Sequence record: NC_047740.1
Direction: 5' to 3' (one strand)
DNA from: Enterobacteria phage phiJLA23
Length of the DNA stretch: 43,017 nt
A model generated the notes under the pieces. That model did not search any database. It saw only the letters and a program-made list of their open reading frames with translations, and was not told the DNA's origin. Positions within the stretch are counted from its first letter, which is position 1; each line of letters begins with the position of its first letter. The position numbers and the translations under genes are program-made. Positions 42 through 42,720 of the stretch are shown here, one piece after another.

Positions 42-470
42 TCCTTAACANGAAATCAAACATAGTATTTTAATAAAACACAACAACATAGCTATAGAGA
101 GTAGTTACAAGATATACATAGTAATATATATAATAATAATAATACTCTAAACCCTTNTTATATAAGGATTTATAAATGTAACTAATGCGTATCTTCGCGT
201 AAAAAGCGTATACAATTTTCAGCGGATGAGATTGTATACATCGAGTTACATCGGTTACGCGTATATAAAATAGCACGATTTGCTAAAGACTACAGCAGAA
301 GCCTTTGCTATAGTTACTCCATCGAAACGAAACATACTGACTAAGGAATACAAAATGACTAACTTCATCAAATCAGCAATCATCGCAGCAGCAGCAATCA
401 TGACGGTAGGTTGTTCTTCTGGTCCGCGCCCTGACGGATGGTGTGCGACTCAGGCGGGTGATGTTTGCGT
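42..470. repeat. Contig wrap-around overlap, copy 1 (matches ~42305-42720)
   Basis: Near-identical ~430 bp at both contig ends; second copy is N-rich. Circular or permuted genome assembled with overlap, or a terminal repeat. Confidence 0.8.
268..332 (+). promoter_or_regulatory. Composite early promoter: palindrome TAGCA-N5-TGCTA (271-285), hairpin, -10-like TATAGT (309-314), leader CATCGAAACGAAA (320-332)
   Basis: Same ordered module recurs at 13 or more other intergenic sites; palindrome centre about 43 bp upstream of predicted start; RBS aagga and ATG at 355 follow. Confidence 0.5.
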
Positions 471-7127: not shown

Positions 7128-7150
7128 AATATTTCTCCAGTAANTCTGTT

Positions 7151-7165
7151 TAGCAATTAGTGCTA
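7151..7165 (-). promoter_or_regulatory. Isolated copy of palindrome TAGCA-N5-TGCTA at the M/L junction
   Basis: ttagcaattagtgctattt; overlaps M-like stop codon and lies about 23 nt before L start; no -10/leader module. Possible operator. Confidence 0.4.
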
Positions 7166-7166
7166 T

Positions 7167-13883: not shown

Positions 13884-13968
13884 TTGTTTCGATTGTTTGA
13901 TTATATCTCAATAGCTACCAAAATAGCACCCCGANGGGTGCTTCTTCCTTGTCAAAAAGTGCTATTAA
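13884..13968 (-). promoter_or_regulatory. Terminator (13917-13945) plus TATAAT -10 and conserved leader; degenerate palindrome over capsid stop
   Basis: Hairpin gcaccc-loop-gggtgc then T-run on minus strand after capsid stop; TATAAT; leader as in other composite promoters. Confidence 0.5.
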
Positions 13969-15003: not shown

Positions 15004-15823
15004 TTATGCATCAAGCCTTACAACTTCTATACACAGGTCTTGATTGTCGCTCACAACATAACCGACTGTAAATAGATTTATTGTTACTCTCCACGCCGTT
15101 CCTGTTGTGGTTTCATAAAAGCTAAAAACATATGGCCTTATTCTTTGAAATTCACCAATGCCAGTAACCAATGCTGTTCCAGTTACGGAAGATGAAGATA
15201 TTGCTGTCCTTACTGTTGTATTGAAGTAGTTATCTGTATTATTGAAGCCCTCAATATTACCTCTTATGTTCCTGGCAGTGCTTCCCTCATCAATCCAGGC
15301 TCTAATGCTAAAAGCANTTGGNGAATCAAGCCTTATACCACCGAGNNCNCNCCNNTCNTCGCCTTGAGGACCTNGCGGCCCCGCAGGGCCTGCCGGACCA
15401 GTGTCGACCTTGNGGCCNTGCNGCACCAGCTNCGCCTGCGGGACCTGCTGGACCNTGCGGACCAACCGGACCTTGTGGACCTGCTTCACCTGAACCCCCT
15501 CCTTCATCACTTGCAAAATCACCTTTAGCCAGAGCTGAAATATAAGCGCCATCCTCGAAGTGAGCATTGCCAAACCTTTTCCAGCCCTGCGCTAGATATC
15601 GGTTAACCCTGTTAACTAGCCCCTGAATTGTGGTGTCGGATGTAACCATGAAGTCTTCAACGTTGTTTGTTGTTCCTTTCGCCATCTTCATGCCAAAGAG
15701 GGTGCCGCTTAGCATCTGCACATCACCATATGGCTGAAAGCCTGATGACATCATCACTTTTACGTTCCTGGCTAAGATTTCAGGTGAATTCCCTACTGCC
15801 ATAGCAATTTCTGTGTAAGCCAT
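15004..15823 (-). CDS. Structural protein with collagen-like Gly-X-Y repeats (ORF disrupted by N-run 15300-15500)
   Basis: RBS aggaga 5 nt before ATG 15823; translation contains GEAGPQGPVGPxGPAGPAG; two overlapping ORFs (15326-15823, 15004-15573) rejoin if the N-rich tract is corrected. Confidence 0.5.
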
Positions 15824-19494: not shown

Positions 19495-19700
19495 TAATTT
19501 CTCCAATAAAAACGCCCCTGGTAAGGGGCAGTTTATCATGATTACTTAACTCCAGCTAGCCTCATTAACCTAGNTCTTGGGTCGNNCNNNNNNNNNANNC
19601 CGTCTGNNTNNNCTTTNNANNTTTTNTANTCNATAAAAAAGCCCCTGAGTAAGGGGCAGTTTATCATGATTACTTAACTCCAGCTAGCCTCATTAACCTA
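19495..19700. repeat. Tandem duplicated segment (~19507-19575 and ~19631-19700) around an N-run: probable assembly artifact containing the terminase terminator
   Basis: Two near-identical copies of the large terminase 3' end plus terminator hairpin, separated by Ns 19575-19635. Confidence 0.7.
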
Positions 19701-23395: not shown

Positions 23396-23466
23396 TTCCT
23401 CGTCTAATTTCGATAAAGTAATGGTAACGCATCCTTGCGATGGATGTTTAGCAATTTGTGCTATTT
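23396..23466 (-). promoter_or_regulatory. Composite early promoter (palindrome 23449-23463, hairpin, -10-like box, leader ATCGAAATTAGAC)
   Basis: Same ordered module as 268-332. Confidence 0.45.
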
Positions 23467-23700
23467 ACTGAAATAAATATCACGNTNCTCACCACGCTNC
23501 TTTCGAAGTTCATAAGCCTTATTAAGCGACTCAATAGCTTCATCAAGGTCTGTTAANANGTCCTTGTGCCCACGCANNCCNCNNANGCGNGNNAACNCAN
23601 CNCGCTCAACAATAAGTACCATACCCTCATCAGCAAGGCATTCGGTGTCGAATCCGTGATTTTCGTGAAAGTAAACTGCCTCATCAACTTCAATTATGCN
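23467..23700 (-). CDS. Probable gene obscured by N-run (hypothetical protein)
   Basis: Long open frame on minus strand through 23485-23700; stop codon lies inside the palindrome copy; start unresolved. Confidence 0.25.
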
Positions 23701-24369: not shown

Positions 24370-24432
24370 TTGTTGTTGATAGGGTAATCATAGCTGACTA
24401 CCCAATTTATTGTTTAGCAATTTGTGCTATAT
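24370..24432 (-). promoter_or_regulatory. Composite early promoter (palindrome 24415-24429, TATGATTAC, leader TATCAACAACAAA)
   Basis: Palindrome also encodes the last residues and stop of the upstream gene. Confidence 0.45.
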
Positions 24433-24974: not shown

Positions 24975-25237
24975 TATTTAGTCTCCTTAATCATTTCCTG
25001 ATATGCGTTAATCATAGCTACCGCACCCTTCAGTTCATCTCCACTCATTCCTGCTACGCTGGGGAAAGCTTAAGTAGCCTAGCTTTAAACTCGCTTACCG
25101 CTTTCTCCCTTATTGGACTGTTTGTCTTAGCTCGNGGTTNCNTNNNNACNACGCNGAANTNCATNCAGAAGANNATTTTCTGTGCTGCGATGGACTTGGC
25201 TGCGTCGAATGTTTACCATTTATTTGAGGATTGAGAT

Positions 25238-25477: not shown

Positions 25478-25630
25478 ATGCTAAAGCCATCTGACTTGAA
25501 CTATTACGATCTAGAAACCATAGCCAAGTACAGCGGTAAGGGTTGGCCTGTTGGTGACTACTTCAAAGAAGATTTGATTGAGAGCTTCAACATCGTCCAG
25601 AAGGCAATTGCAAAAGCAGCAAAGAAATAG
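25478..25630 (+). CDS. Hypothetical small protein (50 aa)
   Basis: ATG overlaps upstream stop (TAAATG); stop TAG lies in palindrome copy 25628-25642. Confidence 0.35.
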   Translation: MLKPSDLNYYDLETIAKYSGKGWPVGDYFKEDLIESFNIVQKAIAKAAKK

Positions 25631-25688
25631 CACGAATTGCTAAAGCCCTTCGGGGCTTTTATTGTATATTCATCTCATCGAAACGAAA
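25626..25688 (+). promoter_or_regulatory. Composite early promoter (palindrome 25628-25642, terminator hairpin gcccttcggggc + T-run, TATATT, leader CATCGAAACGAAA)
   Basis: Palindrome centre about 42 bp upstream of predicted start. Confidence 0.5.
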
Positions 25689-25702
25689 AAAACAAAAGGA
25701 AA

Positions 25703-26062
25703 ATGATTATGATTAACATGATCACTAAAAANGGCATCANCTCAGATAACAATCTGTTTAAAGCTCGCGTTAAAGATGGTATTGAGCAAATCAAGATTCA
25801 TGGTAAATGGCAAAATCTCACTGAGCGGGGGCGTTACATCAAGACTAAGACTCTTTATGTCACATTTGTTAACCATAAATCAGGAGTATCAAAGTCATTC
25901 AAGCAAGGTCGTCGCTATCAGGTAGAAATGACCGCATCTCTTGGACAGAACGCTGGTAAAATATTTGATGAAGATGGTGACTCATGGACGCTGATTCGCT
26001 CTGAAGATGTTGGATTTACAACTGTTTGCGGAACTTATAAATTCGAGAGCCAATACAAATGA
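25703..26062 (+). CDS. Hypothetical protein (119 aa)
   Basis: ATG 25703 after RBS aaagga (ORF track starts at a non-ATG codon, 25637, inside the palindrome). Confidence 0.55.
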   Translation: MIMINMITKXGIXSDNNLFKARVKDGIEQIKIHGKWQNLTERGRYIKTKTLYVTFVNHKSGVSKSFKQGRRYQVEMTASLGQNAGKIFDEDGDSWTLIRSEDVGFTTVCGTYKFESQYK

Positions 26063-26255: not shown

Positions 26256-26312
26256 AATAGCACTTTTTGCTAATGACACTACCCGCTTCGGCGGGTATAT
26301 TTGTTTCCATCA
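26256..26312 (+). promoter_or_regulatory. Composite early promoter (palindrome 26258-26272, hairpin acccgcttcggcgggt, TATATT, leader CCATCAAGAAGACAAAC)
   Basis: Same module; starts 2 nt after upstream stop. Confidence 0.45.
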
Positions 26313-26338: not shown

Positions 26339-26455
26339 ATGAAAAACATCTCTAAAGCAGTTGATGCGGTAATGGAACAAGTAATTAAGTTTGGTTTCTT
26401 TGGCTTCATGGGCGCAATCGCTGTTGTAGTTGGCAAATGTCTGGTTGGTCTTTAA
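26339..26455 (+). CDS. Small hydrophobic membrane peptide (38 aa)
   Basis: RBS aaggtg before ATG 26339; C-terminal FGFFGFMGAIAVVVGKCLVGL. Confidence 0.4.
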   Translation: MKNISKAVDAVMEQVIKFGFFGFMGAIAVVVGKCLVGL

Positions 26456-26517
26456 TGGCACTTTTTGCTAAAGACCTTAACAACAAAAATTGATATATTC
26501 TCTTCATCGAAACGAAA
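26454..26517 (+). promoter_or_regulatory. Composite early promoter (variant palindrome TGGCA-N5-TGCTA 26456-26470, TATATT 26494-26499, leader CATCGAAACGAAA 26505-26517)
   Basis: Same module, left arm one mismatch. Confidence 0.45.
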
Positions 26518-26717: not shown

Positions 26718-26757
26718 ATAATCAAGCCCCTTCGGGGGCATTTAGAGAGAGATGATA

Positions 26758-28341
26758 ATGTTTGATTTTAATGATGACAAATTGACTGTTGAACAAGTAA
26801 TGGCTGTTGCCGCTCAGGATGGATTACCTCCTTTACGTGTTGCTATTAATGCGAACGGTTATCGCCAGAGCGCATCATTCTGGAAAGCTCCGGTTGAGAT
26901 TGATTCTACTGGCGACAAGTATCCTGTTATCTCGCTTGGTAACGACTATGATGTAGTTGGCAAACTATCAAGCAACATTGCTCGTTCTGTTCAGTTTCCT
27001 GAATCATCTGCTTATATGCACTTCCTTGGTTGCATCTCGGCAGCTATGTTAGGTCGCTTTACGGTTGAGTATCACGGAACTCAACAACCAACATCACTGT
27101 ATGTAGTGACCAGCCAGCCTCCATCAACTGGTAAATCCGCCATTAACTCGCTGTCTCTGGCTCCAATGATTGCAGAGACTGAGCGACTAAACGATCTGCG
27201 TAAGCGTGACCGTAAAAAGATTATGGCCAAGCTGTCGGCTCTGGCTAAAGAAATGAAGCAGGAGAAGTCGCCTTCTGAGATGGCTGGTTTGTTTGAGGAG
27301 AAGGAGGAGCTGGAAGATAAGCTCGAGAAACTTTGCGACATCGTATTCCCTGTATCTGATACTACTCCTGAAGGTCTGGCACGCATTAACCATCGTCAGG
27401 GTAGCTTCGCTGTCATCTCGGATGAGGCGACGAGCGTCAACTCACTGCTTGGCATGACCTATGGTGATGGAACAAAGAAAACAAACAGCGAACTGGTACT
27501 TAAGGCCTGGGATGCTGGTAACGTATCTATCGCGCGTGCGAACGCAGAGAACAACATGAGCTTTATTGCTATGGGGTGTATTTCTGTAATTGCGCAGGAT
27601 GAAACAATAGTCGCAATCATGAATGCTGGTGCTCGCGGTATTGGTGTATCCGAACGTTTCTTGCTTGTGCGTGAAAAGTCATTCCTTGGTGAGCGTGTTT
27701 TCGTCGATGATAATGGCGAGTCAACATATGAGCCGATTGACGGAGCGTTGAAGGCTGATTACTTCCGTCTTGTTCATGAAATTATGAGTGAGCAAGATGT
27801 GAAGTTGACTATTAGTAACTCAGCAATGAAGCACCTTAACCGTGCTCGACAGGAAATGGAGCCACACCTTGCGGATGGCGGCAAGTATTCACACACAATG
27901 CTCCGTGGCGCACTAGGTAAAATGGATAAGCAGGTTATTCGCCTTGCTGCCGTTCTTCACACCATACGTAACTGGTTTAATCCAAATGGCGGTAGTCCGC
28001 AGAAGTCCAGGGAGATTGGACTGGAAACGATGCAGGAGGCTTTATTGATGTTTGAAGAACTTAGCAAGACTTACTTATCTTCTGCTAACGCAGCTGGTCA
28101 TGCTGGCGATAACGCTGAGATGAACAAGTTAATTGATATCCTTATCAAGCAAGGCAAGAACAGTAAAGGAGTTGTGGGTTTGCGCTCACTTTATGAAGCT
28201 GCGCGTAAGGTTCGACCTTTCGAGTCACAGGCTGGTGTTATGGCTAAAATTAAAGACCACTTACTCCCGATGCTTGATGATAAAAACTATACCTGCCTGA
28301 TTGGTGACAAGGTATATATCAATCCACGGCTGCTGGGGTAA
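26758..28341 (+). CDS. Replication-associated P-loop ATPase (putative initiator or helicase-loader type)
   Basis: Walker A SQPPSTGKSA and Walker B-like FAVISDEATS; N- and C-termini homologous to the 186-aa protein at 24414-24974; start at second ATG (MFDFNDDK) by paralog alignment. Confidence 0.65.
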   Translation: MFDFNDDKLTVEQVMAVAAQDGLPPLRVAINANGYRQSASFWKAPVEIDSTGDKYPVISLGNDYDVVGKLSSNIARSVQFPESSAYMHFLGCISAAMLGRFTVEYHGTQQPTSLYVVTSQPPSTGKSAINSLSLAPMIAETERLNDLRKRDRKKIMAKLSALAKEMKQEKSPSEMAGLFEEKEELEDKLEKLCDIVFPVSDTTPEGLARINHRQGSFAVISDEATSVNSLLGMTYGDGTKKTNSELVLKAWDAGNVSIARANAENNMSFIAMGCISVIAQDETIVAIMNAGARGIGVSERFLLVREKSFLGERVFVDDNGESTYEPIDGALKADYFRLVHEIMSEQDVKLTISNSAMKHLNRARQEMEPHLADGGKYSHTMLRGALGKMDKQVIRLAAVLHTIRNWFNPNGGSPQKSREIGLETMQEALLMFEELSKTYLSSANAAGHAGDNAEMNKLIDILIKQGKNSKGVVGLRSLYEAARKVRPFESQAGVMAKIKDHLLPMLDDKNYTCLIGDKVYINPRLLG

Positions 28342-30451: not shown

Positions 30452-30520
30452 TTTGTATCCTCTCGTTTTGTTTTGATGGAGTAAATATACCCCCTCTTTT
30501 NATTTGTNTTTTANTTNGTG
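30452..30520 (-). promoter_or_regulatory. Composite early promoter (TATATTTAC, leader CATCAAAACAAAAC; palindrome degraded by Ns)
   Basis: Module order conserved; upstream half-site region contains Ns. Confidence 0.35.
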
Positions 30521-30843
30521 CTAGTTCNTGTNTNCNTTNTNNNTNNNNTTTCTAGCGTATTCATCATCTCCTCAAGCTTCTCTGCATCAATAGAGGACTT
30601 AACCCATTGCAACTTCACATTGCCATCATTATCAACAAGGCTAGATACACCTTTAACCATGTAGCCCTGAGGAATTAGGTTACTCACATCGCGACCGTGA
30701 CCATCCCCAGCCTTAGCCAACTTGCTGCGACGCAGCTCTACGTTACGAATATTCATACCGTACTTCTCTGCGATTGCCTTGTTAGTCATACCGTTAGCCA
30801 GTTCTTGCTTTAACTCTTCGTTGGTGATTTTAGCTATAGACAT
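30511..30843 (-). CDS. Putative HTH DNA-binding protein (3' end uncertain, runs into N-run)
   Basis: N-terminal helix-turn-helix-like segment TNKAIAEKYGMNIRNVELRRSKL; ORF passes through Ns 30490-30550. Confidence 0.45.
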   Translation of the reverse strand: MSIAKITNEELKQELANGMTNKAIAEKYGMNIRNVELRRSKLAKAGDGHGRDVSNLIPQGYMVKGVSSLVDNDGNVKLQWVKSSIDAEKLEEMMNTLEXXXXXXTXTSXX

Positions 30844-30931: not shown

Positions 30932-31000
30932 TCGTCTCTCGTTTCGATGAACACACTATACGCCATCCATGGCGATGTGTTTTAACAAAAAGTGCTATTT
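30932..31000 (-). promoter_or_regulatory. Composite early promoter (variant palindrome TAACA-N5-TGCTA 30983-30997, hairpin cgccatccatggcg, TATAGTGTG, leader CATCGAAACGAGAGACG)
   Basis: Same module; about 100-nt leader before the HTH gene. Confidence 0.45.
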
Positions 31001-31611: not shown

Positions 31612-31686
31612 TCTTAACCCTCTCATTTGCTGATGTAATTAATATAATCCATCCTTGTATTTTAGTTTTAACAAAAAGTGCTATTT
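31612..31686 (-). promoter_or_regulatory. Composite early promoter (variant palindrome 31669-31683, TATATTAATTAC, leader CATCAGCAAATGAGAG)
   Basis: Same module; palindrome overlaps upstream stop. Confidence 0.4.
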
Positions 31687-32297
31687 ACTCATAAACAAGA
31701 AAACTTACATGCTTACCTTTCGCATCATTACACCCGTAGTACCCATCAAATTCATTATGTAACTTCCATGCAAATCCGTCATCGCTAACTATTTCAACCT
31801 GGTCATTAATCGGGTCAAGTTTGAATTCATACTCATTGAGCAGGGTGAATGAGCCGTTCGTCATTACGCAAGTCGCAGTAATCATGAAAAAATCCTCCGG
31901 GCAATCTTTCTTCATTTCTTCGATATCAGCAATCATTCGGTCNNNCCATGTTTCGATATCAGTGTTCAGATAACCCNCTTCTNAACTATTTAAACCNGTT
32001 CATTAATCGGGTCAAGTTTGAATTCATACTCATTGAGCAGGGTGAATGAGCCGTTCGTCATTACGCAAGTCGCAGTAATCATGAAAAATCCTCCGGGCAA
32101 TCTTTCTTCATTTCTTCGATATCAGCAATCATTCGGTCGCGCCATGTTTCGATATCAGTGTTCAGATAATCCTCTTCGAAACTATAATCAAGACACCAAG
32201 CTAAATCCCAAACATCATTTTTATATCCAGCTTTACTCAACTCCTGCGCCACCATTGCCTGAAAGAGTTCCCATTGCTTATCAAAGGTTAATTTCAT
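31685..32297 (-). CDS. Hypothetical acidic protein (about 155 aa in the true genome; interrupted by an artifactual ~198-bp tandem duplication)
   Basis: ORFs 32079-32297 and 31685-31936 share ...RMIADIEEMKKDCPEDF; copies differ by homopolymer length and Ns at the junction. Confidence 0.45.
31786..32181. repeat. Tandem ~198-bp duplication with N-rich junction (probable assembly artifact)
   Basis: Unit 31786-31983 repeats at 31984-32181; Ns at 31943-31997; A6 versus A5 run between copies. Confidence 0.7.
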
Positions 32298-32504: not shown

Positions 32505-32568
32505 CTTCGTTTCGATGAAGTAACTATATCGCATCCTTGCGAAATCTCTTTAGCAATTCGTGCTATTT
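32505..32568 (-). promoter_or_regulatory. Composite early promoter (palindrome 32551-32565, hairpin atcgcaaggatgcgat, TATAGTTAC, leader CATCGAAACGAAG)
   Basis: Palindrome centre about 42 bp upstream of predicted start; also encodes ...STNC-stop of VRR-NUC gene. Confidence 0.5.
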
Positions 32569-34896: not shown

Positions 34897-34966
34897 TTAA
34901 TGTTCGTTCGATTGACGATATAATAACAGCCATATAAACCAATGTTTAACAAAAAGTGCTATTGAG
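34897..34966 (-). promoter_or_regulatory. Composite early promoter for helicase operon (variant palindrome TAACA-N5-TGCTA 34947-34961, leader CAATCGAACGAAC); in divergent region abutting HTH gene RBS
   Basis: Palindrome ends 6 nt before the RBS gaggtgag of the plus-strand HTH gene while at about -42 of the helicase promoter. Confidence 0.5.
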
Positions 34967-34974
34967 GTGAGAAA

Positions 34975-35448
34975 ATGGATTCAATTGACAAGCGTACTCT
35001 TAATGGTAACAACGGAACAATTCGCACAGAAGACAAGAAGCCGCGTAAGCGTCCATCAGGTTACTATGTACTAAAGGATGAAGTGAGAGCGGGATTAAGG
35101 GCGCGCCTTGAGATTGTATTGGACTTCTACGGCAGCAAGGCCAATCTAGCTAAGCAGCTAAAGGTTACGCGCCAGGCTGTAGAAGAATGGTGTAAGCGGG
35201 GAATGATTTCAGCTCGCGGCGCACAGCTTGCGCATAATCGATATAAGCGAACTGGCGAGGGGTTCAGGGCTACATTCTGCCGACCTGATTTACAGTTCGA
35301 CGGTAACGGCAAGCCTCTAACACTGCGATGCAAGAAGCGTCAGATGCTTCGAGTTGTTACAGAAGCTGAGTTAGCAACCAAGCCGCAGCGTAAATCATGG
35401 CGAAAGGTTAAGAAAGAAAGAGAAGAAGCACGAAAAGCTAAAGAGTAA
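34975..35448 (+). CDS. Putative HTH transcriptional regulator (Cro/YdaS-like)
   Basis: HTH-like segment SKANLAKQLKVTRQAVEEWCKRG; basic C-terminus; RBS gaggtgag; terminator 35454-35485 follows. Confidence 0.6.
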   Translation: MDSIDKRTLNGNNGTIRTEDKKPRKRPSGYYVLKDEVRAGLRARLEIVLDFYGSKANLAKQLKVTRQAVEEWCKRGMISARGAQLAHNRYKRTGEGFRATFCRPDLQFDGNGKPLTLRCKKRQMLRVVTEAELATKPQRKSWRKVKKEREEARKAKE

Positions 35449-36502: not shown

Positions 36503-39220
36503 ATGGCAATTTATGACGCTGGAACTGCATCGCTTGCAGCTGACGGAACTGTAACTGGTGTTGGCACCACGTGGAGGCAACCACTAACGCTAATCCGAGT
36601 TGGCGCAACAATGATTTTTAACACCACCCCGACAAGCATTGTTACTATCGCTGAGATTTTAAGCGATACAGAGATTCGTGTATTCAATGATAAAGGTTTT
36701 ACTGCGCCAGCTGGGACTCAGTACTCAATCCTTGCTCATGACGGAATTACTGTCCAAGGTCTTGCTCAGGACGTTGCTGAGACACTTCGTTATTATCAGT
36801 CCCGTGAAACAGAGGTTGCAGCGGCAGTTGATGCTTTTAATCAATTTGATTCTGATTCTTTCCAGCAAAGCGTAAATAATGTCAACATGCAATCTCAGCA
36901 AGTTGCTGTTGATGCTGCTCAAGTTTCTTCTGACAAAGATCAGGTATCTTCTGATAGGCAGTTAGCTGAAAGTAGCGCTAACTCGGCTTCCTCTTCAGCT
37001 ACAATAGCAAGCTCTGCTGCGGCTTCTGTGTCATCTGCTCTTGTAGTTGATTTCTCAAATGGTGGAGAAATAAACTCAAGAACTCAGCCTGCAATTTACT
37101 TTAATGACAATCATGTTTCGGTTTATTACTGGTCTGGTAGCGTTCCAAAATCCATACCACAAAACTCATCACCACAGTCTACAGGTGGTATTGGAGTTGG
37201 TTTTTGGATTCAACAGGATTACACAAGAAGGTTTGAATCAGTATCAGCAATGACAAACTCTGCCAGAATTTATGACTTAGAGGTTGTCTATTGTGATTCT
37301 TACATTGGTGGTCTTGGTTATGGTGGTGGGTTCTTTGTTTGTAAGCCGGAGTCATCTTTATCATATGGATTATCTTCAGGATTGGTTTTTGAATCAAGTA
37401 CAGGTTATTACTGGGAAAGAATCTGTAGCGGGGAGCTGTCGCCTTGCGAACTTGGGGCCATTAAGTCATCGACATCAGACTCAACGACACAGATACAGCA
37501 AATCCTAGACTCCGGGCTGGCATTAAAGCTTGATAGCGACTACATGGCATCAAACCTGGTAATGAGAAATAAATCTTGCTCTATAATTGGTTTTGGCAAG
37601 CACAAGTCAAGAATAACTCAGCTTAGTTCATCAATTGGCTCTTTAATTGAGGTTTCTGATTCTTGCTCGCTCATTCATATTGAAGGTATTGCTCTTTACG
37701 GCACTGGAGCCCAGCAAGACACGGCGTTTACTGATGGTACTGCTGGGATTTACATCCCTACGCCGACTGGGTTATCAACCAATTACCCATTCAACACTGG
37801 TGCTGACCCTAGGAGGGACTTAACGATAAGAAACACTCACATTGCTGGGTTTGATGTTTACGGAATTTTCGTTGCTGCTGGTAACTACTCTCCTGTTCTT
37901 GATGATGTTCTTATTCAGCACATAAAAAAAGACGGATTGATTAACGAAACAACAGACTTCACATGGAATAACATACAGGTAAACACCTGTGGAAGAAATT
38001 GTCTAATACTTAGGAATGCCGGAAACTGTAGGATTGTTGGCGGTAAGTTTATTTGGTCGGGTTGGTCGGCTTATAATGAGCTTGATGATGCTTATGGCAT
38101 CCTGATTGATAACTGCCAAAACATCACCATGTCAGCTATAGAGGCGCAGGATTGCGGTGGTGACGGTGTTAGAATTGTAAACTCTAGAAATGTGGTATTT
38201 AATGGATTAAATAGTAACAGGAACAGCATAAACTCAAACTACAGAGATTATAACGTTTCGTTTTCAAATAGCTCTGTAAGAATCTATGGTTTTGTTGGGC
38301 TTAACTATGTATCTAACAATGGCGATGGAAGGCCAACTTCCGCTGGCAACTTCAGATTCCTTGACTCAAGATCTGATGTTGTGATCGATGGGGTTGTTGA
38401 ATCTGGTTACTTTGGCCCAAATTTCTCAGGGGACACTAACTATGTTGCTGAGTATTCAGGAAACCTGAAGATAAACGGACTGATAGACAAAAGGAAGACA
38501 AGAATTAAGCCAGCAAACGACACTTCAGCTTTTGATGGGGTCTCTAATACACCAGTATTCGCCGCAGCGGCATCATCAGTTGGGCAGCAATATTGGCTAA
38601 GGCTTTCACAGGCAAATAAAGATAAGATTATATGCACTGGATTTGACCCGTCACTAGGTTTCACCGCTACATGCAATATATCGCCGACCATAACTGTTGC
38701 TGAAGACTTTAACCTTATAGCTATAGGGACTGGTTTTGGAGTTAATAGTAATGCTCTTTACTTGCAGTATAACGTGATGGCATCAGGAGAACACAGTGTC
38801 TCATTGTTAATATCAGCATCAGGTGAAACAAGAGTTTTATCAGGTGTGTTGCCAGTCTCATCAAGAATGGTCAATGGTGGTACTTACAATATTGCTCTTG
38901 GTTTTGATGTATCTGGTAAGGTTTGGTGGAGCATCTTAAACCTGAATACTGGATTTAGAGTTAGAAGGTCATTTGATTCTCAGTATATAGATATTGATGT
39001 CAGACCTATACTAACAACAGCTGGTAACTATGTAACCATGTATTCAGGTCAAGGCGCTGGTGATGTAGCTTGCTCTGGATATGGCTTTGGTGTTTACGTT
39101 GGCAGCTATTCAGATGAGTCTGATTATTGCGCTTCAAGATACTATTCGCTTAAAGGTGGTGTTGATTTGACAAAACAATCAGTATTTTTGAGTTTGAATG
39201 GTGATGTAACGTCACAATAA
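36503..39220 (+). CDS. Lateral tail fibre / tailspike-like protein (predicted beta-helix, possible glycan-binding or depolymerase domain)
   Basis: 905 aa; conserved-looking N-terminal anchor, Ser/Ala-rich linker, long Asn/Gly/Ser-rich repetitive region typical of beta-helix fibres; RBS aggag. Confidence 0.7.
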   Translation: MAIYDAGTASLAADGTVTGVGTTWRQPLTLIRVGATMIFNTTPTSIVTIAEILSDTEIRVFNDKGFTAPAGTQYSILAHDGITVQGLAQDVAETLRYYQSRETEVAAAVDAFNQFDSDSFQQSVNNVNMQSQQVAVDAAQVSSDKDQVSSDRQLAESSANSASSSATIASSAAASVSSALVVDFSNGGEINSRTQPAIYFNDNHVSVYYWSGSVPKSIPQNSSPQSTGGIGVGFWIQQDYTRRFESVSAMTNSARIYDLEVVYCDSYIGGLGYGGGFFVCKPESSLSYGLSSGLVFESSTGYYWERICSGELSPCELGAIKSSTSDSTTQIQQILDSGLALKLDSDYMASNLVMRNKSCSIIGFGKHKSRITQLSSSIGSLIEVSDSCSLIHIEGIALYGTGAQQDTAFTDGTAGIYIPTPTGLSTNYPFNTGADPRRDLTIRNTHIAGFDVYGIFVAAGNYSPVLDDVLIQHIKKDGLINETTDFTWNNIQVNTCGRNCLILRNAGNCRIVGGKFIWSGWSAYNELDDAYGILIDNCQNITMSAIEAQDCGGDGVRIVNSRNVVFNGLNSNRNSINSNYRDYNVSFSNSSVRIYGFVGLNYVSNNGDGRPTSAGNFRFLDSRSDVVIDGVVESGYFGPNFSGDTNYVAEYSGNLKINGLIDKRKTRIKPANDTSAFDGVSNTPVFAAAASSVGQQYWLRLSQANKDKIICTGFDPSLGFTATCNISPTITVAEDFNLIAIGTGFGVNSNALYLQYNVMASGEHSVSLLISASGETRVLSGVLPVSSRMVNGGTYNIALGFDVSGKVWWSILNLNTGFRVRRSFDSQYIDIDVRPILTTAGNYVTMYSGQGAGDVACSGYGFGVYVGSYSDESDYCASRYYSLKGGVDLTKQSVFLSLNGDVTSQ

Positions 39221-39251: not shown

Positions 39252-39680
39252 TTAAAACGGAATATCATCTTCATCACTAAATCGGCTTTGTTGCTGCGGC
39301 TGCTGTCTCTGTTGCTGTTGAGCTTGTTGTCGCTGCTGCTGCTGTTCTGATTCACCTCCTCGCTGACTAAACATCAATCGAGGATTCTGCAACTCAAGCG
39401 TAATATATGTCTTGCCATTATGTTCGCGCTCATTAACCGCTAATGAATCGCCGCTCACAGAGATAACTTTTCCTTCCTGAAATGCTTCGTCATACCAGCT
39501 AATTTGCGCCTCGCTAGCAAAGAAGGTAGCTCGATAATTACTATACTTACGCTCTCCATCTCGTGTTTTATAAGATTCGCTCATTTCGATAGCGTACATC
39601 TTCCAGTTACCCTTGGCGTTCTGACCATCTTTACTGAACAGCGTCTTACCAACCATATCTAAGAATTTGTCCCAATTCAT
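39252..39680 (-). CDS. Single-stranded DNA-binding protein (SSB)
   Basis: OB-fold-like N-terminus, Gln-rich linker, canonical acidic C-terminal tail ending DEDDIPF. Confidence 0.8.
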   Translation of the reverse strand: MNWDKFLDMVGKTLFSKDGQNAKGNWKMYAIEMSESYKTRDGERKYSNYRATFFASEAQISWYDEAFQEGKVISVSGDSLAVNEREHNGKTYITLELQNPRLMFSQRGGESEQQQQRQQAQQQQRQQPQQQSRFSDEDDIPF

Positions 39681-41665: not shown

Positions 41666-42049
41666 TTATTTCAACTTAAGAATCTCGCTATTCTTATCAA
41701 CTAGATTAGCAATAAGCTCATCTTTAGCCTTTAACTTTTCGCAGGCAACCTCAAGCTGAGCCTGATATTTGTAAACCACCTCTTGAGAGTCATGGTAACG
41801 ATTTGACTCGAACTTAACATCGAAGTATTGCTCATCAAGTTCCGCAGGATTTCCACACTTATCCATGCTCTTAAACATGAACTTCTCAATCGCGTAATAG
41901 TTATCCTCAGCTCTGTGCTGCGCGGCTCTATTTAGCATCTCCCTTATNNCCCTTANTACGTGGTCATGTCGCTTTCCCGTGATCTCGGCAATTTCAAGGC
42001 TACTCATGGTNACGTTTTCATCAATATTAATCAGATTCATATCTATCAT
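41666..42049 (-). CDS. Rha-family phage regulatory protein
   Basis: Motif MSSLEIAEITGKRHDHVxRxIREML typical of Rha N-terminal domain; start taken at ATG 42049 (ORF track starts 42079 on GTG); Ns at 41945-42010. Confidence 0.65.
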   Translation of the reverse strand: MIDMNLINIDENXTMSSLEIAEITGKRHDHVXRXIREMLNRAAQHRAEDNYYAIEKFMFKSMDKCGNPAELDEQYFDVKFESNRYHDSQEVVYKYQAQLEVACEKLKAKDELIANLVDKNSEILKLK

Positions 42050-42079
42050 CTCTAGTTTTTGGGGTTGAATTATTTTCAC

Positions 42080-42185
42080 TCCCGGATTTTGTGGTGCATT
42101 TTTTGCATCAAAAGCAGCACCACTGCTGCCGGTGAGTGCACTATAACCAATCAGGAATCATGCTTTTTGATTATTCGTGCTATTT
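42080..42185 (-). promoter_or_regulatory. Promoter region for Rha gene with half-site copy (ATAGCAC) and TTATAGTGC -10-like box
   Basis: One palindrome arm only; variant of the composite module. Confidence 0.3.
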
Positions 42186-42304
42186 TGTATATAGCTGTAA
42201 AACTCACATAAATACGCTTTGATGCTCTGTACGCCGCATGAATGCTGAATGTAACCCTTGTAACCAATGTATCCACCAAATTTGCACCCTATCTATATAT
42301 ATAT

Positions 42305-42720
42305 GCATTTTCTCCTTAACAGGAAATCAAACATAGTATTTTAGTAAAACACAACAACATAGCTATAGAGAGTAGTTACAAGATATACATAGTAATATAT
42401 ATAATAATAATAATACTCTAAACCCTTATTATATAAGGATTTATAAATGTAACTAATGCGTATCTTCGCGTAAAAAGCGTATACAATTTTCAGCGGATGA
42501 GATTGTATACATCGAGTTACATCGGTTACGCGTATATAAAATAGCNNGTTTTNTAAAAAACANNACAGNAGNCTTTTCCTTTANTACCNCCATCAAAACA
42601 AAANATACTGACTAAGGAATAAAAAATGAANAACTTCATAAAATCAGCAATCATCGCAGCAGCAGAACTNATGACGGTAGNTTGTTTCTGGTGNNCNCCC
42701 CCTTGACGGNTGGTGGGGGC
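42305..42720. repeat. Contig wrap-around overlap, copy 2 (low-quality duplicate of ~42-470)
   Basis: Matches window start including lipoprotein 5' end; many Ns. Confidence 0.8.

Follow-up and report, generated by a model that had tools for sequence, protein, structure and literature searches.

A duplicated, AT-rich repeat module as a non-coding control element of T1-like coliphages

The AT-rich repeat cluster close to the left end of the analysed DNA of Enterobacteria phage phiJLA23 (NC_047740.1; the whole stretch of 43,017 nucleotides is called the window in the following) is a genuine non-coding control element of T1-like coliphages, which contain two such elements per genome. Its core is a conserved block, designated module A, which was found in 132 phage records, more than 100 of them from other subfamilies, and which is always located at the point of divergence between a leftward operon, consisting of small ORFs, sometimes Rha, and then the genes for exonuclease VIII, Erf and SSB, and a rightward operon coding for a lipoprotein and a DUF6453 protein. 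The block shares 82-84% identity with its counterparts in Rtp, CEB_EC3a, ESCO41 and the more than 100 records of other subfamilies, compared with 70-78% for the flanking genes, and its neighbours are exchanged between phages, as seen for Rha, which can occupy either side, and for a Dcm methylase, an HNH endonuclease and small ORFs. A first-pass annotation, made from the letters of the sequence, had proposed a functional cis-acting cluster rather than a spacer at this place, and this proposal is borne out by the conservation of the block above that of the adjacent genes and by its duplication in the genome. The positions of all features are compiled in Table 1.

The record itself is an N-rich draft with gaps; the phage is a T1-like coliphage of the genus Rogunavirus (Drexlerviridae) and shares about 99.6% identity with Escherichia phage C119 (99.6-100% over the region of interest). 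The ends of the window overlap (29-443 is the same sequence as 42301-42715), and the AT-rich cluster is therefore present twice in the record, with the cleaner copy at 42331-42541 (offset 42271). In comparison to C119, about ten segments are missing from the draft, each at a cluster of Ns, representing collapsed gaps. The stretch 37968-39291 of C119, which is without counterpart in the window, corresponds to the pac-proximal junction with the second module and contains the largest intergenic gap of C119 (38270-38941, 672 bp). The description of the AT-rich cluster as part of the largest non-coding region is thus correct for this draft, but not for the complete genome of C119, and reflects the loss of that segment. 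The Rha gene (41666-42079, minus strand) is also 318 bp (106 codons, in frame) shorter than in C119, beside low-quality bases at 41927-41930, which indicates a genuine deletion or else a join made during assembly. As a side aspect, the record of JK06 (DQ121662) ends at 46072, equivalent to about position 255 of the window, and was thus opened inside module A; the duplication of the module may have led to a break at this point of the assembly. A scan of IMG/VR returned only ten contigs, which correspond in length to isolates already recovered from the phage collection.

All motifs named in the first-pass annotation were found in the sequence, two of them displaced by 2 nt, and they differ in how far they exceed chance expectation. 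The 8-bp palindrome ATAGCTAT is present at 88-95 instead of 90-97, but does not stand out from chance, 8-bp palindromes being common in 43 kb by our own estimate, and it shows no conservation outside of Rogunavirus in an alignment of 18 phages. The 9-bp inverted repeat also exists as described, with its arms GTATACAAT at 208-216 and ATTGTATAC at 231-239, but at chance frequency, since perfect 9-bp inverted repeats with loops of up to 20 nt gave four matches (three distinct loci) in the genome versus 3.4 expected; its left arm is broken in the Braunvirinae without a compensating change. The (TAA)4 repeat, located at 131-142 rather than 133-146, occurs only once in the genome and was recorded in two of 100 shuffled sequences. 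The three GCGTA direct repeats were recovered at 187, 197 and 206, together with an additional fourth copy at 259, and three such repeats within 25 bp form the sole cluster of this kind in the genome and were obtained in none of 100 shuffles. GTTACA/TGTAAC repeats, five copies of which are present at 42250-42516, cluster nowhere else in the genome; at the site equivalent to the copy at 104-109, T1 reads GTTACAC-GATATACA. The AT-richness of the region was confirmed as well, as it is the highest of the window with 80% over 100 bp. In the Braunvirinae, the array of repeats takes the form of GCGTAAC units at an exact 10-bp phase (DTL, JeanPiccard) around the palindrome TCCGCGGA. The phased repeats may resemble OmpR or CpxR sites.

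A related copy of the block, module B, is present at the other large divergent junction, beside pac, in C119, Rtp, T1 and TLS, with T1 and TLS exhibiting the same layout at both junctions. The two longest A/T runs found in each of C119, Rtp and T1 are those of the two module copies, and both module sites also rank among the three most AT-rich 100-bp segments. As read toward the downstream operon, each copy shows in this order GTAAC-type repeats, a CCGCGG-centred core and (T)TACGC repeats about 10 bp apart, then GTTACA and A/T-rich DNA, followed by TTTAG, by a run of (TTA)n-(TA)n and by GTATATC-TGTAAC. Module B shares this orientation and faces the operon of small left-end ORFs that lies downstream of it. 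The sequence of the short repeat depends on the subfamily, reading GTTACA in phiJLA23 and Rtp, TGTTACAC in T1, and TGTTCAC in TLS, and all four copies of TGTTACAC in the T1 genome lie within the two junctions.

Table 1. Positions of the module, its parts and the adjoining features (window coordinates unless another phage is named).
Feature	Position	Strand	Basis or remark
Module A, conserved non-coding block, ~170 bp	92-263 (clean copy 42363-42534)		Cross-subfamily conservation
GTTACA repeat left of the A/T run (AGTTACAAGATATACA)	104-109	+	Invariant in 18-phage alignment
Pure A/T run, 23 nt, containing (TAA)4	122-144		Longest in window; next longest 13 nt
Predicted sigma-70 promoter P_L1	123-151	-	Consensus scan
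P_L1, parts	-35 TTTAGA 151-146; -10 TATATT 128-123; predicted start ~116	-	17-nt spacer; leftward
Repeat array	177-263		Rough two-fold symmetry about 223
Array, left half	TGTAAC 177; GCGTA 187/197/206; GTATAC 208		
Inverted repeat GTATACAAT-N14-ATTGTATAC	208-239		Innermost pair of repeat array
Array, centre (TTTTCAGCGGATGAG)	216-230		
Array, right half	GTATAC 234; GTTACA 245; GTTACG 254; GCGTA 259		
T1-family 21-nt direct repeat copy, marbox match (ATAGCACGATTTGCTAAAGA)	270-289	+	Marbox consensus
Copies of the 21-nt repeat	270-289, 7147-7166, 23445-23464, 24411-24430, 25627-25646, 26257-26276, 26455-26474, 30979-30998, 31665-31684, 32547-32566, 34943-34962, others		
Rightward promoter core of the lipoprotein operon	309-330	+	Geometry recurrent at ~12 other window copies, C119, Rtp, T1
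Lipoprotein promoter, parts	-10 TATAGT 309-314; leader CATCGAAACGA 320-330	+	-10 is 19 bp past the box
Lipoprotein start	Shine-Dalgarno 343-347; ATG 355	+	
Degenerate marbox-type promoter, then terminator-like hairpin ahead of Rha	42114-42183	-	
Rha leader, parts	Box 42183-42164; -10 TATAGT 42145-42140; hairpin 42129-42114	-	
Possible 34-codon ORF (MHIYIDRVQIWWIHWLQGLHSAFMRRTEHQSVFM)	42204-42308	-	Shine-Dalgarno AAGGAG
Module B of C119	38530-38720		Related to module A; junction lost from window
Module copies of Rtp	27995-28195 and 130-330		Close alignment over ~125 bp
N clusters	~7144, 13920-13935, 15340-15397, 19584-19633, 23576-23594, 25139-25166, 25694-25709, 30513-30559, 31984-31989, 39638-39652, 41927-41930		

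At its right edge, module A is abutted by one copy of the 21-nt intergenic direct repeat of the T1-like phages, which was reported for TLS as aaATAGCACnnnTTGnTAAAA with its function listed as unexplained (PMC11447400). The repeat matches the consensus of the E. coli marbox recognised by MarA, SoxS and Rob (GCAHWWWWTGYYAAA / AYNGCACNNWNNRYYAAAYN), and no paper connecting the two was found in the literature searched. Matches with at most one mismatch occur 13 times in the window versus 1.47 expected, seven of the copies showing no mismatch and the copy next to the module showing one. The box points in the direction of transcription both in the window and in C119, Rtp and T1. A -10 hexamer follows at a distance of 18-19 bp from its end, and the box therefore overlaps the -35 position, as known for class II marbox promoters, which are defined by a forward orientation and overlap of the -35 position (PMC6900184). 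The element at 270-314 combines the match to the consensus with exactly this arrangement. A tblastn search of these phages for a MarA-like gene, with a MarA sequence as query, returned none. In view of the marbox match, Rob, MarA or SoxS of the host, or else a phage mimic, may activate these promoters. The repeat is an element separate from the module, being constant across the subfamilies and co-oriented with about 13-22 genes per genome; the copy abutting the module would by this analysis drive the lipoprotein operon. The leader CATCGAAACGA follows most of the marbox-type promoters and marks the point where transcripts of about ten promoters are predicted to begin. In C119 the lipoprotein gene is annotated from a TTG at 280 (280-600 instead of 355-600), and with this start the promoter would fall within the coding sequence. 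The better start is the ATG at 355, as judged from its Shine-Dalgarno sequence, the lipobox and the Pfam match, Phage_lipoprotein covering the full 81-aa product from this codon.

The stretch of about 500 bp that had been regarded as free of ORFs contains, on the left side of the module, a possible ORF of 34 codons with a strong Shine-Dalgarno sequence, and also holds a unit of promoter and hairpin ahead of Rha. Two GTTACA repeats lie inside this ORF, 9 bp apart from start to start (42250 and 42259). Its N-terminus is kept within Rogunavirus and its end is variable; a 48-aa version is annotated in AKS96, and an early stop in AHS24 leaves its coding character possible, yet uncertain. A terminator is annotated in AKS96 at the hairpin of the Rha leader, and promoter and hairpin together may constitute an attenuator.

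The first-pass annotation had further suggested a packaging recognition site, i.e., a pac site at which the terminase would recognise and cut the concatemer, and had named the mapping of read termini as a check. The phased repeats in AT-rich DNA do resemble the pac sites of other phages, and module B lies within about 100-300 bp of the mapped terminus, but the record starts of T1 and Rtp and the read terminus of MSK are all found at the other divergent junction. Position 1 of the T1 record is the start of the terminal repeat (1-2800), the Rtp record starts in the region homologous to the T1 start, and the PhageTerm terminus of MSK, a single forward peak at 36,862 (PMC8421802), falls into the homologous stretch about 60 nt before module B and about 19 kb away from module A, which is located at 17.5 kb in this phage. 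The motifs TGCAATGAT and GATTGTTGC, which are repeated in the pac-proximal stretches of T1 (1-130), Rtp (1-140), C119 (38290-38540) and MSK (36690-36862), are absent from the cluster and from the whole window, but present at 38.3-38.5 kb of C119. The pac regions of T1, TLS and Rtp resemble the site of module A in forming a large non-coding divergent junction with a sister copy of the module, but differ from it in holding the pac-specific motifs and the termini. With the relatives serving as proxy, the termini are placed elsewhere and the AT-rich cluster is refuted as packaging site, leaving a practically negligible probability for such a role. Only a very slight one is assigned to a hairpin of RNA or DNA formed by the inverted repeat, or to a small RNA or small protein encoded by the block. 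On the minus strand, the inverted repeat is followed by GCTTTTTA in Rogunavirus, and an ORF of 68 aa (70-276, minus strand) exists mechanically, with hypothetical proteins annotated here in some records. However, none of the nine pairs of the inverted repeat covaries, the paired fraction is not above that of shuffles, one pair is unpaired in six of ten sequences, and the U-run is absent in the Braunvirinae. An Rfam scan of the region produced noise and no match, and the protein-coding reading of the ORF was discarded because its frame is broken by 1-nt indels between clades. The inverted repeat is best read as a set of DNA motifs rather than a hairpin. Finally, an AT-rich spacer of low complexity, lacking a specific function and with motifs that arose by chance, would be in accordance with the chance-level occurrence of the palindrome and the inverted repeat, but hardly merits any credence in view of a block which is duplicated and conserved above its coding flanks across subfamilies, and whose motif clusters were never reached in the shuffles.

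As to the function of the element, we tentatively prefer an early transcription-control module, composed of a sigma-70 promoter and an array of repeats to which a protein encoded by the phage would bind, and consider this reading of the sequence quite possible, if still short of probable. The predicted promoter P_L1 ranks 36th among about 253,000 positions in a position-weight-matrix scan (top 0.02% of the genome), and its hexamers are near consensus and separated by the 17 +/- 1 bp expected for sigma-70. The spacing remains at 17-18 nt in the relatives checked despite indels, and is kept in AKS96, Sf12 and Phagiculus across one insertion plus one deletion; moreover, a promoter is annotated at the same place and strand in the GenBank records of CEB_EC3a and ETEP102. 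The long A/T run comprises the spacer and the -10 hexamer of this predicted promoter and is at the same time a candidate DNA-unwinding tract. From the placement of the hexamers, the (TAA)4 run represents the promoter spacer, and the GCGTA repeats come to lie at about -70 to -95. We infer from this arrangement the start of transcription at the module, its early timing and the kind of protein bound: host RNA polymerase with sigma-70 would initiate leftward near position 116, using the (TTA)n tract as a 17-bp spacer and further A/T-rich upstream DNA like an UP element, and elongation would proceed in the direction of the small ORF, Rha, exonuclease VIII, Erf and SSB. The array, in which repeats of the type GTA(A/T)(A/C) follow each other at intervals of about 10 bp, is positioned upstream of P_L1 and back to back with the marbox-type promoter of the lipoprotein operon, with additional GTTACA repeats downstream of the predicted start. 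All repeats together may be bound by a DNA-binding protein of the phage, which would adjust how active the two divergent promoters are. Two further candidate promoters were rejected, a second leftward one (TTTACG-N17-TACATT), which scores well in module A and is not kept in the B copies, and a rightward one (GTTACA-N17-TATATA), which is devoid of the key last T of the -10 hexamer; a sigma-54 reading of ATAGCAC-N3-TTGC was dismissed by inspection, its spacing being 2 nt too short. Strong sigma-70 early promoters with A/T-rich upstream elements are known from other virulent coliphages, as exemplified by T7 A1-A3 and the early promoters of T5. The module resembles these in the use of host polymerase (no RNA polymerase is encoded by the T1-like family), in -35 and -10 hexamers at 17-18 bp within A/T-rich surroundings, in its occurrence in several copies per genome, and in heading presumed early operons. 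It differs from them by a weak -35 hexamer, a length of about 170 bp, a start that is predicted, and phased repeats far up- and downstream of the core promoter.

The strongest alternative to this promoter/operator reading, or possibly an additional role of the module, is a replication origin, which appears conceivable from the sequence though less than probable. An initiator encoded by the phage would then be recruited by subfamily-specific iterons in both orientations and by the phased GCGTAA repeats, one example being the DUF3987 helicase with its C-terminal winged-helix domain. Unwinding would take place at the 23-nt A/T run, aided by the negative supercoiling that arises between the two divergent promoters, and the two modules would act as paired origins, or as an origin accompanied by an enhancer. 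We are slightly more doubtful about the specific version in which both modules are the origins of the Drexlerviridae, the iterons of each subfamily recruiting the winged helix of the DUF3987 helicase and the helicase opening the (TTA)n tract between the divergent promoters. Early control is favoured by a non-coding block that is nevertheless conserved above the adjacent genes, by its constant position at the divergence of the operons while neighbouring genes are swapped, and by module B pointing the same way toward its own operon, although the agreement in orientation of two copies amounts to one bit of information only. The short repeat varies by subfamily, which fits a phage-encoded binder, and the marbox-like repeat remains invariant, which fits a host factor. 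A change of repeat sequence with the subfamily is equally typical of iterons, and the layout of an iteron origin is indeed recognised in three GCGTA(A) repeats at a spacing of 9-11 bp and GTTACA-type repeats on both sides of the most AT-rich tract, in addition to the location of the two longest A/T runs at exactly the two modules in C119, Rtp and T1. The Cro-like regulator (34975-35448) is 85% identical to that of Rtp, in step with the module (83%), but the DUF3987 helicase (26752-28341), whose C-terminal winged helix is confidently modelled, co-varies with the module equally well at about 90%. Helicase and regulator together show 85-91% identity to the Rtp proteins versus 43-61% for primase, Erf and exonuclease VIII, indicating that the replication genes are mosaic; their co-conservation fits either of them as a candidate binder and does not separate promoter from origin. 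Evidence against early control comes from the -35 hexamer, which matches at only four of six positions, and from ACG-M12 and TLS, which show no T at the last -10 position at the correct spacing, so that P_L1 is not universal, whereas the A/T tract is. T1 (TTGACT-N16-TATAAT), TLS (P51, P01) and Rtp also possess good canonical promoters that are closer to the first gene than the module is, leaving the operons without an obvious need for a promoter of the module; the dispensability of the latter promoter in turn argues for an origin. In T1, the canonical promoter of exonuclease VIII is followed by CATCGTAAACGA. No transcriptome of any T1-like phage was found in the literature searched. An origin is disfavoured by the lack of DnaA boxes on inspection of the alignments and of any GATC within the 547-bp region 42080-42627, so that the clustered GATC and DnaA boxes of an oriC-like site are not found here; the paper on SU57 likewise noted no oriC-like site. 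In favour of an origin at the module, the papers on SU57 and TLS report that no origin was found for these phages. The winged-helix match is generic (Foldseek E > 0.01), the P4 alpha DNA-binding domain is absent among the fold matches of the helicase, and searches of helicase, primase and regulator sequences against the PDB returned nothing useful. GC skew turns wherever the gene orientation turns and is uninformative on the origin. The A/T run also suits a promoter spacer plus -10 hexamer, and the promoter/operator reading accounts for the origin-like features at least as well. A layout of iterons and an AT tract is also found in oriL/oriR of SPP1, ori/crr of P4 and the SaPI origins, which may serve as leads; like these, the module has short repeats in both orientations around an easily melted tract and two copies per genome, and phiJLA23 encodes a winged-helix helicase and a separate primase. 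The likeness is one of layout, and the TLS repeat TGTTCAC may resemble the P4 iteron TGTTCACC.

T1-like phages are common contaminants of laboratories and fermentations as well as candidates for phage therapy, and the origin of replication, the early regulation and the role of the intergenic repeats were listed in the TLS paper as still open for this group. The analysis defines a discrete, duplicated and family-wide cis-module with clear boundaries and removes it from the candidates for the packaging site. It leaves two competing hypotheses for its function, an early promoter/operator or an origin, for each of which candidate binding proteins can be named, and the marbox match of the adjacent repeat bears on the question of how transcription is driven from the dozen or more promoters in each genome of the T1-like family.
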